DNA of 26,524 nucleotides from positions 1 to 26,524 of the IMG/VR virus record IMGVR_UViG_3300037721_000101; one strand, given 5' to 3'. Both the position numbers and the translations under genes were made by a program. Numbering within the stretch: position 1 is the first letter of the stretch; each line of letters opens with the position of its first letter. Below, in pieces: positions 18,527 through 26,259 of this stretch. Origin of the DNA: a virus. Its lineage: Duplodnaviria; Caudoviricetes. The notes below the pieces were generated by a model. The model was given only the letters and a program-made list of their open reading frames with translations, did not search any database and was not told the DNA's origin.

Positions 18527-18811
18527 TCAGGCGGCGACGGGGGTCTTGCGGCGCGAGGTGCGGGGCTCCGGCGGGCGGGTCTCGTGGACGCTCTGGGTGT
18601 CGGCCCCGTCGTCCATCTCGGCCTTGAGCCAGGCGTCCAGCTCGGTGATCGAATAGGCCAGCTTCCGGCCGATGGGCGTGGCTTTCGGGCCCTTGCCGAG
18701 GTGCCGGTAGTTCCAGAGGGTCTTGACGCTGAGGCCGATACGGCGGGCTGCTTCGGGGGTCCAGAGGTAGCCGGCGGGCGGCGGAGTCGGGACCTTGGCG
18801 AGCCTGGGCAC
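18527..18811 (-). CDS. excisionase / AlpA-MerR-type HTH protein
   Basis: YLWTPEAARRIGLSVKTLWNYRHLGKGPK...GRKLAYSITELDAWL; GAAGGAG RBS. Confidence 0.85.
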   Translation of the reverse strand: MPRLAKVPTPPPAGYLWTPEAARRIGLSVKTLWNYRHLGKGPKATPIGRKLAYSITELDAWLKAEMDDGADTQSVHETRPPEPRTSRRKTPVAA

Positions 18812-19932: not shown

Positions 19933-20373
19933 ATGCTGGATGTCGCCTACGAAGCCGTCACAACTCTCGCGCCAGGACGACTGGCAACGATCGACGAAGA
20001 CCGCGGAACCATACGCGTCCGCCTCGACAAGCACTCACCCCTCACCGACGTCGTGCGGCAGCTGAACATCGAGATAGACCAACTCCTCTCGTATGCCCAC
20101 TGGTTCCAGCTGTGGGGCACGGAGATCGTCTCGCGCGACACCCCGGGCCGGCCCCTGCGAATCGAGTACATCCTCAAGATGAAGGTCCCCCGGAGCGCCT
20201 TCATAGAAGAACGCAAGGGCCTCGTCAGCGTGTTCATCGACCCCGTCCTGAACACGGAAGAGTTCGCCGTAGCGATGAACCCCGCCACCCGCAACTTCCT
20301 TGCCGGCGGCCAGTGGTTCCAGCTGCACGGCGGCGAGATCATCGACAATAGCCCCGAGACGCACAGGGTCTGA
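19933..20373 (+). CDS. hypothetical protein with internal tandem duplication (146 aa)
   Basis: GGAGGA RBS; two halves of about 70 aa ending WFQLWGTEIV and WFQLHGGEII. Confidence 0.8.
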   Translation: MLDVAYEAVTTLAPGRLATIDEDRGTIRVRLDKHSPLTDVVRQLNIEIDQLLSYAHWFQLWGTEIVSRDTPGRPLRIEYILKMKVPRSAFIEERKGLVSVFIDPVLNTEEFAVAMNPATRNFLAGGQWFQLHGGEIIDNSPETHRV

Positions 20374-20389: not shown

Positions 20390-21706
20390 GTGCCGGGATA
20401 TATCGAGGACCGCTGGTACAAGAAGGGCCCGGACGGCAAGCGCAACGTCCCCACGGACCGGCACGGTCAGGGCAAGCGCTACAAGGTCGCCGGCATCCCA
20501 GGCGTGCGCGCCCGGTCCTTTCCCGACGGCAAGCTGACCGCGGCGAAGAAGTGGCTGGCCGACGCCCAGACCGACAGCACACGCGGAGAGTTCTACGATC
20601 CGCGAGACGGCACTATCACCCTCGACGCCTACGTGCGCAACCACTGGTGGCCGACCACCCGTTACCCTCCCACGACGAAGGCCTCCGTCAAGTCCAAGGT
20701 CTTCAACCACATCCTCCCGCACGCCGGCGCGCTGTCGCTGAACCGCATCGGGTTCGAGGAGATCCGCGCCTGGCAGACCCGCGCCGAGCGGGACATCGAC
20801 GTGGGCACCCTCGTCGTGACGTGGGCCCACTTCTCGTCGATCATGCAGGCGGCGTTCAAGGCGAAACGCATCCCCGCCAACCCATTCCGTGACGACGAGC
20901 TGAGAGCCCCGCGGCTGCCCAAGTCGAAGGCTCTGGCATGGCCGCAGGAAACCGTGCTCGCCATCAGGTCGGCTCTGCCTGAGCGATACCGCATCTTCGT
21001 CGACCTGGCGGTCGGTGCCGGCCTGCGGCAAGGGGAGACGTTCGCCTTCTCCCCCGATGATGTGGACGGCGAGGACATCAACGTTGTCCGGCAGATCGTG
21101 AAGGTGGGCGGCCGGTTCGCGTTCGCGCCGCCGAAGGGCAACAAGGAGCGCGTCGCGCCCTGCGCGCCAGAGTTGGCAAAGGCCGTCAAGGAGTACGCCA
21201 ACCGCTTCCCGTCGGTGGCCGTGACGCTCCCGTGGGTGGATCCCGACCGGCCGAACCTCGCCTGGGACGAGCGGCCGAAGTGCACGGTCCGGCTGCTCGT
21301 CACCACCCAGTTCACGGCAGGTGCCAACGGCGGAGCGGTCACGAGGGACACCTTCAACGACCGGCAGTGGAAGCCGGCTCTGCGGGACGTGGGGCTGATC
21401 GACGCCCCGGACGTTACGTGGCACGAGCCGACGAATGGGAAGCAGCCCTGGCGCAAGGAGGTGTGGGCGATGCCGCGGGAGTTCGGCTTCCACGTCCTGC
21501 GCCACACGTTCGCTAGCGTCGTCCTGGCCGAGGGTGAGACCATTACTCAGCTGGCTGCCTGGCTGGGGCACTCGGATCCGGCGTTCACGCTGCGGACCTA
21601 CGTGCACTTCATGCCGAAGTCCGGGAGCCGTGGCCGGGAAGCGATCGGGCGGTTCATGTCCGGGCAGCCGGCCGAGACCGACGGGCTCGCCGGGGAGCGC
21701 TCCTGA
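20390..21706 (+). CDS. int: tyrosine integrase
   Basis: GLRQGE (R), PPKG (K), HVLRHTFAS (HxxR), LGH, YVH (catalytic Y); N-terminal arm-binding region. Confidence 0.95.
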   Translation: MPGYIEDRWYKKGPDGKRNVPTDRHGQGKRYKVAGIPGVRARSFPDGKLTAAKKWLADAQTDSTRGEFYDPRDGTITLDAYVRNHWWPTTRYPPTTKASVKSKVFNHILPHAGALSLNRIGFEEIRAWQTRAERDIDVGTLVVTWAHFSSIMQAAFKAKRIPANPFRDDELRAPRLPKSKALAWPQETVLAIRSALPERYRIFVDLAVGAGLRQGETFAFSPDDVDGEDINVVRQIVKVGGRFAFAPPKGNKERVAPCAPELAKAVKEYANRFPSVAVTLPWVDPDRPNLAWDERPKCTVRLLVTTQFTAGANGGAVTRDTFNDRQWKPALRDVGLIDAPDVTWHEPTNGKQPWRKEVWAMPREFGFHVLRHTFASVVLAEGETITQLAAWLGHSDPAFTLRTYVHFMPKSGSRGREAIGRFMSGQPAETDGLAGERS

Positions 21707-21749
21707 AGTGGATCTCCCCAGATTCTCCCCAGCGAAGAGGACCATGAGA

Positions 21750-21784
21750 GCGGCGGTCGGATGCACTACAGATCCGGCCGCCGC
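21750..21784. terminator. hairpin between int and the lyase 3' fragment
   Basis: gcggcggtcggat/atccggccgccgc 13-bp stem with one G-U pair. Confidence 0.7.
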
Positions 21785-21823
21785 TTCATCGAGAAGACGA
21801 AGGTGTTTCCGCAGGTCAGACGG

Positions 21824-21925
21824 TCAGGGCGTGTGGACCGTGGGCCGGGGTGCCGTCGCCATGCCGTTGCCGATGAAGAAGCTCGGGTGGGGCGGCTGGT
21901 TGTAGGCAGTGTTCTGCCAGGCCAG
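21824..21925 (-). pseudogene. 3' replacement fragment of a host PL11 rhamnogalacturonan lyase (YesW/YesX family) carried in attP
   Basis: translates LAWQNTAYNQPPHPSFFIGNGMATAPRPTVHTP*, matching the conserved PL11 C-terminal AWQNxAYNQPPH motif; no lyase sequence upstream. Confidence 0.85.
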
Positions 21926-22121
21926 CATTCCGTGAGCTGTCACGTTCGCCGGCGCAAGCCACTCGGCTTGTCTGACCTGCCGCCTTTCAGATCCCTGGCC
22001 ATCCCTTCACTTCCCTTCACGTCCCGGATTCTCCCTCCCTGGACGCTCCCCCCGTCCACCCGCTCCCCAGATTCTCCCCACGAAAGGCGCCACCGAGACG
22101 CTCGCGACCTGCTGGGACGCA

Positions 22122-25689: not shown

Positions 25690-26259
25690 TCATGGGCGCT
25701 CCAGGTGCCGGTAGATGGTGGGGCGGCTGACGCCGAACTCGTCGGCGATCTGCTGGACGGTGTACTTACGCTTGCCGTCACCGCCGGTCTCGTCGTACAT
25801 CTGCTGGGCCAGCTTGATCTGGCGAGATCGGAGCTTCGGCTTCTGCCCGCCTGTGCGCCCGCGGGCGCGGGCGGCTTCGAGTCCCTGCTTGGTGCGCTCG
25901 ACCATGAGGGAGTGCTCGAACTCGGCGACGGCGCCGAGGATGTGGAAGAACATCTGGCCGACGGGGGTCGAGGTGTCGATGCCTTGGTCCAGGACGACGA
26001 GCTGGACGCCGCGCGCTCGCAGGTCGTCGCCGATGTCCATGAGGTTGCGGAGCGAGCGCCCGAGCCGGTCAAGCTTGGTGATGACGAGATGGTCGCCCTC
26101 GCGGACGGCGACGAGCGCCTTGTCGAGTTCGGGCCGCGAGGCGAGCTTCCCGCTGAGCTTGTCGACGAAAATCTGGTCGCACTTCGCTTCGGTGAGGGCG
26201 TCGCGCTGGGCTTCGGGGTGTTGGTCGGAGGTGGACACGCGTCCATAGCCGATTCGCAT
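25690..26259 (-). CDS. serine resolvase/invertase (small serine recombinase)
   Basis: IGYGRVST.DQ, DKLSG, KLDRLGRS, C-terminal HTH IADEFGVSRPTIYRHL. Confidence 0.95.
   Translation of the reverse strand: MRIGYGRVSTSDQHPEAQRDALTEAKCDQIFVDKLSGKLASRPELDKALVAVREGDHLVITKLDRLGRSLRNLMDIGDDLRARGVQLVVLDQGIDTSTPVGQMFFHILGAVAEFEHSLMVERTKQGLEAARARGRTGGQKPKLRSRQIKLAQQMYDETGGDGKRKYTVQQIADEFGVSRPTIYRHLERP

Follow-up and report, generated by a model that had tools for sequence, protein, structure and literature searches.

The DNA analysed here is a 26,524-nucleotide stretch of a partial virus record (hereafter the window). It very probably carries the attachment site (attP) of a phage whose tyrosine integrase targets the 3′ end of a host gene for a family PL11 rhamnogalacturonan lyase, with the gene being repaired on integration, and the lyase is likely to be kept whole in the process. 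The evidence comes from sequence: a lyase tail carried by the phage, arm repeats around it, an integrase beside it, related prophages with two tails and a complete lyase frame, and an empty site. According to the mechanism that we propose, the integrase would recombine within the codons for Trp-Gln-Asn-Thr-Ala, close to where the host PL11 gene ends. The last codons, stop and hairpin of the phage would complete the lyase gene at one end of the prophage, while the host's own lyase tail would move to the opposite end. We infer catalysis by this integrase, the exact 7-bp overlap, binding at the arms, termination at the hairpin and activity of the repaired lyase. Gene-restoring integration into coding sequences is known, and the PL11 lyase is a new target for this known strategy.

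The window belongs to a temperate Streptomyces-type soil phage. It encodes a replication initiator, a DnaB helicase, HTH regulators, an HTH_17 protein and a tyrosine integrase; no head or tail genes were identified among the window ORFs scanned with Pfam and PHROG, and a tRNA scan of the window yielded no tRNA or tmRNA genes. An independently assembled contig from a sequencing run that is a possible source of the window spans positions 21300-22109 with no differences. The features that define the integration module are the following.

18527-18808, minus strand: candidate excisionase or directionality factor (HTH_17) in the immunity-integration module; Pfam PF12728, E = 1.3e-8, with the role predicted.
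20393-21706, plus strand: tyrosine integrase of 437 aa, from the GTG at 20393; Pfam PF00589, E = 2.4e-12; PHROG phrog_1, E = 2e-34.
21714-21731, no strand assigned: integrase-proximal arm-type repeat pair, predicted arm-binding sites.
21749-21785, no strand assigned: hairpin between the convergent lyase tail and integrase, from folding and a repeat scan.
21812-21818, no strand assigned: CAGGTCA motif flanking the core towards the integrase, in inverted orientation to its counterpart at 21973-21979.
21824-21925, minus strand: phage-borne end of a PL11 rhamnogalacturonan lyase gene, comprising its last 33 codons plus the stop (identity block), from structure and Pfam matches.
21896-21920, minus strand: predicted recombination core, with imperfect 9-bp inverted repeats (6 of 9 positions matching) around a 7-bp overlap at 21905-21911.
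21973-21979, no strand assigned: TGACCTG motif; in related attP and attR sites it precedes the Trp codon by 59-61 nt.
22035-22080, no strand assigned: distal arm, predicted arm-binding sites, with a degenerate pair at 22035-22051 and a perfect pair at 22063-22080.

The integrase contains R212, K248, H367-x-x-R370, H393 and Y403, which correspond to the full R-K-H-R-H/W-Y catalytic set. Homologues of the excisionase candidate occupy the equivalent place in two prophages. The unannotated gene preceding the integrase contains an internal 34-nt repeat (20097-20130 and 20310-20343) encoding two HWFQL/QWFQL motifs, and a resolvase/invertase-type serine recombinase is located near the end of the window (25690-26259, minus strand).

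The tail peptide (LAWQN...TVHTP) is read on the minus strand from 21925 to a stop at 21824. Among PDB chains it aligns with the C-terminal end of YesW (chain residues 551-583, E = 3.2e-11), and also with those of YesX (1.4e-9) and 4cag (1.7e-8). In Pfam it covers positions 463-490 of the 490 of RGL11_C (E = 2.5e-10; score 40.2 bits, cut-off 27). These matches bear out the preliminary description, which had assigned the segment to a PL11 C-terminus and had noted that lyase-like sequence ends abruptly upstream of LAW: the match starts at the Leu of LAWQN, and the residues upstream of it do not align. At the nucleotide level, 96 of 102 positions are identical to a single-copy host gene (L135). 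The window holds only these 33 lyase codons, and not the full-length enzyme of a phage auxiliary metabolic gene.

The same description had reported identical 18-bp repeats downstream of the integrase and a hairpin 3′ of the lyase tail, and both are present. The repeats are located at 21714-21731 and 22063-22080; each consists of two CTCCCC units 11 bp apart, and the exact pair occurs at these two places only in the window. The fragment between the arms is lyase sequence and not part of a tRNA or tmRNA gene. Direct-repeat arm sites with a putative binding role flank the tail on both sides at a spacing that is conserved among relatives. Where it is present in related tails, the integrase-proximal arm is located 181-191 nt beyond the Trp codon. 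On the other side, the distal pairs of related attP and attR sites are found at -160/-149 and about -132/-121 relative to the Trp codon, and the distance from the distal arm to the hexamer CAGAAC, which encodes Gln-Asn, is 162-164 nt in all PL11-type attP sites measured.

The two arms of the hairpin span 21749-21762 and 21772-21785. The 101-nt stretch that contains it folds at -35.2 kcal/mol (z = -2.55), a value reached by 1 of 200 shuffles. A strong stem-loop of differing sequence follows the stop codon in all 18 integrase-adjacent tails folded, with z between -1.4 and -5.5 relative to base shuffles. It is likely a phage-supplied terminator; a scan for canonical U-tailed terminators did not list it. 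An inverted CAGGTCA/TGACCTG pair brackets the core at near-constant distance in many sites of the family, and is possibly a site for a host factor or excisionase.

This layout bears on the reading that the fragment is a host leftover, either as the attR of a prophage already integrated or as the decayed remains of a captured gene, with no relation to integrase specificity. Orphan tails that follow phage arm sequence do have the appearance of an attR. However, in a true attR host DNA comes after the tail, whereas in the window the hairpin, second arm and integrase come next, and this arrangement is conserved throughout an integrase clade. We consider a host leftover extremely improbable.

A search with the integrase alone collected 70 loci, 35 viral and 35 from genomes. 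The lyase tail is located 3′ of the integrase on the opposite strand in 16 of these. It is present in 13 of the 14 loci with near-full-length integrases at least 72% identical to that of the window and in none with near-full-length integrases below 72%; three partial, 3′-end-only integrase matches also carry it. Eight loci resemble the window in having only the tail between the phage arms (attP-type). In seven others it ends an open frame with 606-888 upstream codons, and an eighth such junction is partly unreadable. Two of the seven full frames were scanned (L041 and L036), and both encode a full PL11 enzyme, matching RGL11_C over 1-490 of 490 positions as well as RGI_lyase; the target lyase of the relatives matches YesW with E = 4.5e-87 over the last 266 aa. 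A pattern search for arm plus tail added three attP-type sites, with integrases 80-83% identical, and one attR-type site; these were found through the tail and are excluded from the 13 of 14. The same attP layout is found in a 27.7-kb contig (X7) from a separate soil study. In a set of 50,697 annotated phage records, none of the 253 integrase matches reached 60% identity, and the lyase tail had no real match. The integrases of the Streptomyces phages VWB, mu1/6 and OnionKnight, of the same enzyme class and from the same host genus, are only 26.6-27.9% identical to that of the window.

Five Streptomyces genomes provide the integrated state. In G001 (S. griseoflavus JCM 4479), G002, G003 (S. acidicola K1PN6), G004 and G006, one tail copy completes the lyase beside the integrase, and a second, orphan copy follows the distal arm at fixed spacing, marking the far end in direct orientation. 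Close homologues of the integrase thus sit convergent with full-length PL11 genes, with a displaced tail at the far end of the element, as expected from integration into this gene. The tail-to-tail intervals are 89.1 kb in G001, 66.5 kb in G002, 2 x 89.9 kb in G003 and about 64.7 kb in G006, where both ends are on one contig in each genome; in G004 the copies are on two contigs. The intervals of G001 and G002 encode terminase, major capsid and tape measure proteins. The window genes to the left of the tail (integrase side) correspond to genes running inward from the lyase end of these prophages, and those to the right to genes running inward from the orphan end, so the window has the joined, attP form. 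The closest integrated integrases are 78-83% identical, and no lysogen of the exact window phage was found. In G007 and G008 only the 3′ part of the integrase is present, beside a complete lyase. G005 is a decayed case, in which the second tail copy carries the phage hairpin and two non-synonymous changes.

The empty site is represented by G016, whose lyase is 96% identical to that of G002 over 701 nt and whose first 42 nt after the lyase stop are those that follow the G002 orphan tail. More generally, the DNA after the orphan tails of G002, G003 and G006 matches the DNA after single-copy lyases, while in the five clean lysogens the DNA beyond the tail next to the integrase has no match among the 24 loci compared. 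No empty-site match was found for G001 and G004 in the loci compared. The close-relative comparison used the same 12 genomes whatever the centre, so that a close empty relative was available for G002 only. Together, the two-tail pattern and the empty site point to an attP-type junction in the window and to a lyase that is likely preserved on integration.

The same junction would also arise inside a tandem double prophage, or through a collapsed assembly; the target would then be unchanged and only the state of the window would differ. G003 offers a precedent, with three tail copies exactly 89,881 bp apart and an attP-type junction in the middle one; furthermore, the second copy of G005 also has the phage hairpin, and none of the ORFs scanned in the window, a 26.5-kb partial record, was identified as a head or tail gene. 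On the other hand, the window is a virus record, and the same junction recurs in seven viral contigs from the integrase search and in three contigs from the pattern search. We regard an origin within a tandem or collapsed arrangement as improbable, and a phage attP as the better description.

Several further observations concern the integrated elements and their surroundings. The three tail copies of G003 are located on contig C111 at 18880, 108761 and 198642, in either a tandem double prophage or an assembly duplication. In the G002 prophage, a tail-fibre-like protein (L157, 1840-4023) has a match (E = 1.8e-15) to a PHROG family annotated with pectin lyase activity, which probably reflects a receptor-binding depolymerase fold. 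In four loci (L082, L113, L073 and L098) the stop of the host lyase is followed by a convergent gene with a glycoside hydrolase-like translation; such a neighbour suggests that the target lyase belongs to a plant-cell-wall degradation cluster.

The preliminary description had placed attB in the last ~100 bp of the lyase gene, which agrees with our results, and the crossover at 21910-21926, which overlaps only partially with the interval that we consider more likely, located slightly further 3′ in the lyase gene. Exact attL/attR blocks from 12 clean lysogen pairs (five PL11, five kinase-phosphatase-like, one sigma-domain and one rnpB) intersect in the 15 bp at 21916-21902, assuming one cutting register across the family, and the crossover probably falls within 21902-21916. 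Counted from the first C of CAGAAC, the PL11 group alone brackets the exchange between about -4 (L009 compared with hosts) and +22 (G004), and all four target types together narrow the shared block to 0 to +14. G005 was left out of this bracket and rejected as an attL/attR pair because of the phage hairpin and the non-synonymous changes in its second copy; including it would narrow the right limit to +11.

Within this interval, symmetry favours 21905-21911 as the overlap heptamer, a placement that we hold with modest confidence. An overlap just upstream of CAGAAC was ruled out, as both L009 and the rnpB pair G421 are without identity there. The predicted heptamer includes wobble positions, and the window version is found in none of the 21 single-copy host tails examined, which means either that the host is unsampled or that the heptamer is misplaced. 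Recombination by phage lambda needs identity in the overlap. Were the same needed here, the heptamer would restrict the hosts open to lysogeny.

Strand exchange in the Tyr-Arg-Thr codons, upstream of this region at about window positions 21930-21940, would account for the identity that begins 17-20 nt before CAGAAC in L002-L004, L040, G002 and G003, and many relatives already match the host in these codons. Nevertheless, the window, L007 and L009 are without that homology while their arm spacing is unchanged, mismatches between attL and attR occur at -12 (G001) and -10 (G004), and the shared block in the sister clades is limited to about -3 to +16. An upstream exchange is thus very unlikely, and we retain the crossover in the Gln-Asn region.

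Without the phage tail, the lyase would lose about its last 28 residues. The lost part includes a Tyr located 60 residues after the conserved Lys of NNGTK. The available text of PMC8787155 describes, for two PL11 enzymes, a Tyr 60-61 residues after the equivalent Lys modelled as stacking on a sugar ring, to which the Tyr of the tail would correspond; the literature searched gave nothing on the YesW residue numbering. The complete lyase frames beside the integrase in the relatives support the earlier proposal that integration restores the lyase with a tail supplied by the phage. In each of the 12 attP-type tails examined, the reading frame stays open as far as a stop where the host gene has its own, and the sequence shared between copies ends within 2 nt of the stop in four of the five clean pairs (12 nt in G003). 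Combined with the varying hairpin, these properties favour selection for repair.

The same target is compatible with a tail that came along with the capture event and is not maintained for the sake of the lyase, its sequence being renewed by gene conversion between the ~100-bp direct repeats of lysogens. Within each genome, the two copies are identical at 96, 95, 92, 85 and 93 of 96 nt in G001, G002, G003, G004 and G006, respectively, and the G002 copies share variants that are absent from the empty relative G016; conversion can therefore refresh the tail without selection. In addition, the lyase is patchy in its distribution, and a related clade truncates its target without repair. Relative to the nearest sampled host tail, the attP tails differ by 56 synonymous and 39 non-synonymous codons, which is compatible with both readings. 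What conversion explains less readily is that all 12 tails stay open to the host stop position, that the shared sequence stops at the lyase stop codon, that each of the 18 tails folded has a hairpin behind it whose sequence varies, and that the window and L007 have an intact segment downstream of the core but no lyase-like sequence immediately upstream of it. A tail maintained by conversion alone appears rather unlikely to us, and selection for repair is preferred. That host tails might be leftovers recoded by phages was ruled out, since their third-position A/T excess is the same as in controls (6.9% in the tail and 4.5% in the body of 21 host tails; 8.1% and 5.2% in 97 control frames).

The best-known phage sites that are repaired on entry are in RNA or housekeeping genes, and the present case would add the gene of a dispensable plant-cell-wall enzyme to these docking sites. 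In E. coli, e14 and phage 21 integrate into icd, where the phage supplies the C-terminal codons of the enzyme gene. The icd and guaA elements supply C-terminal codons as here, but in core-metabolism genes of other bacteria. In a survey of 430,134 proviruses (PMC13626063), as far as its available text goes, guaA is the top coding target, coding sequences make up 39.9% of targets, and the targets of tyrosine integrases are balanced between coding and RNA genes; the statement in the preliminary description that the target is usually a tRNA gene was therefore too strong. A close parallel is given by the Bifidobacterium prophages that integrate into dnaJ2, which, in the accessible part of PMC6109161, are also actinobacterial temperate phages using the 3′ end of a coding gene, with a 7-bp exchange region inside a longer common core. 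These prophages reconstruct a functional protein on integration, and their excision was shown (PMC6109161). Their target is a conserved chaperone gene with a 35-bp core, whereas here it is a patchily distributed plant-polysaccharide lyase with a shared block of about 100 bp. The tRNA and tmRNA islands detected by Islander, as presented in the sections of PMC4383910 available, resemble the present case in that attP carries a fragment of the target, the gene is restored, the regenerated gene and the displaced fragment mark the ends, and tandem arrays occur. Islander islands target RNA genes (PMC4383910) and the window a protein-coding gene, so that frame and codon wobble constrain the core. The literature searched, to which large att databases and subscription journals do not belong, yielded no PL11 gene as an integration target; the term is also absent from the available supplements of PMC13626063 and PMC12884075, whose external databases may list such prophages.

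Among 401 sampled Streptomyces genomes, 172 carry the lyase tail and two show the occupied-site pattern, one of them the search centre. A search of the same genomes for the attL pattern returned the centre genome only, with a gap range that is likely too narrow for the spacing of the G004 type. Given the many tails and the few occupied sites, the integrase could provide a likely neutral integration vector for many strains.

Two quick integrase trees were calculated, the corrected set consisting of 46 rows without near-duplicates and partial integrases. The PL11 clade has an SH-aLRT support of 87-89, and the window clade (SH-aLRT 89) comprises 19 rows, of which 16 are PL11 and one is cut off. 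The remaining two have other neighbours, contrary to the idea that PL11 is the sole specificity of the clade. In L039 (G009, with L172), the integrase is 79% identical and the element is in a gene with a Sigma70_r2 domain, with a repair tail of about 80 C-terminal codons; the PL11 lyase gene of this genome is unoccupied. L006, with an integrase 70% identical, has a neighbour other than PL11.

The sister clade is mostly associated with rnpB, in 29 of the 70 loci, with a full match to Rfam RF00010 in three of the 12 scanned. These loci carry the 3′ end of the RNase P RNA gene, or their integrase sits in it. Their integrases are 57-69% identical to that of the window and share the arm repeats and the CAGAAC core hexamer; what they restore is the RNase P RNA gene at its 3′ end, as the window type is predicted to do for the PL11 lyase. 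In more distant members, a gene with AAA_33 and metallophosphoesterase domains, presumably a polynucleotide kinase-phosphatase, is truncated and not repaired (L056-L059 and L064 with L166-L170; attP-type L029). Other members are located beside YceI, DUF6397, sulfatase (L042), ABC permease and MFS genes, with one junction only seen for each. The hexamer C(A/T)(G/C)AAC is present at the junction in most targets of the family, and none was found at the ABC permease and MFS junctions.

These comparisons suggest a broader picture, which we put forward tentatively and rate somewhat below an even chance. An integrase family of Streptomyces may have switched its target repeatedly, among rnpB and five or more unrelated protein genes, with its arms and a single core hexamer conserved; the hexamer is read in frame as Trp-Gln/Leu-Asn in four protein targets. 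A repair tail would be present in some branches (PL11 lyase and sigma-domain gene) and absent from one (kinase-phosphatase-like), and the lyase tail would be kept because a pectin-digesting lysogen serves the phage. If so, the family is a natural series for how integrases change specificity and when gene repair evolves. With rnpB and several enzyme-gene targets around one core motif, target switching by these integrases is directly testable, and it is a more interesting lead than the PL11 site.

Two minor observations concern the sister groups. The rnpB gene is located just 3′ of the integrase in L012-L026, L028, L034, L044-L046, L048-L054, L067 and L069, and the arm-to-core distances of the rnpB type within L012-L035 cluster at 151-154, 161 and 172 nt, in steps of about one helical turn. 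Five prophage-like elements split the AAA_33/metallophosphoesterase gene with a shared core of only 20-24 bp and no repair, and in the four single-contig cases its C-terminal part is displaced by about 55-70 kb.
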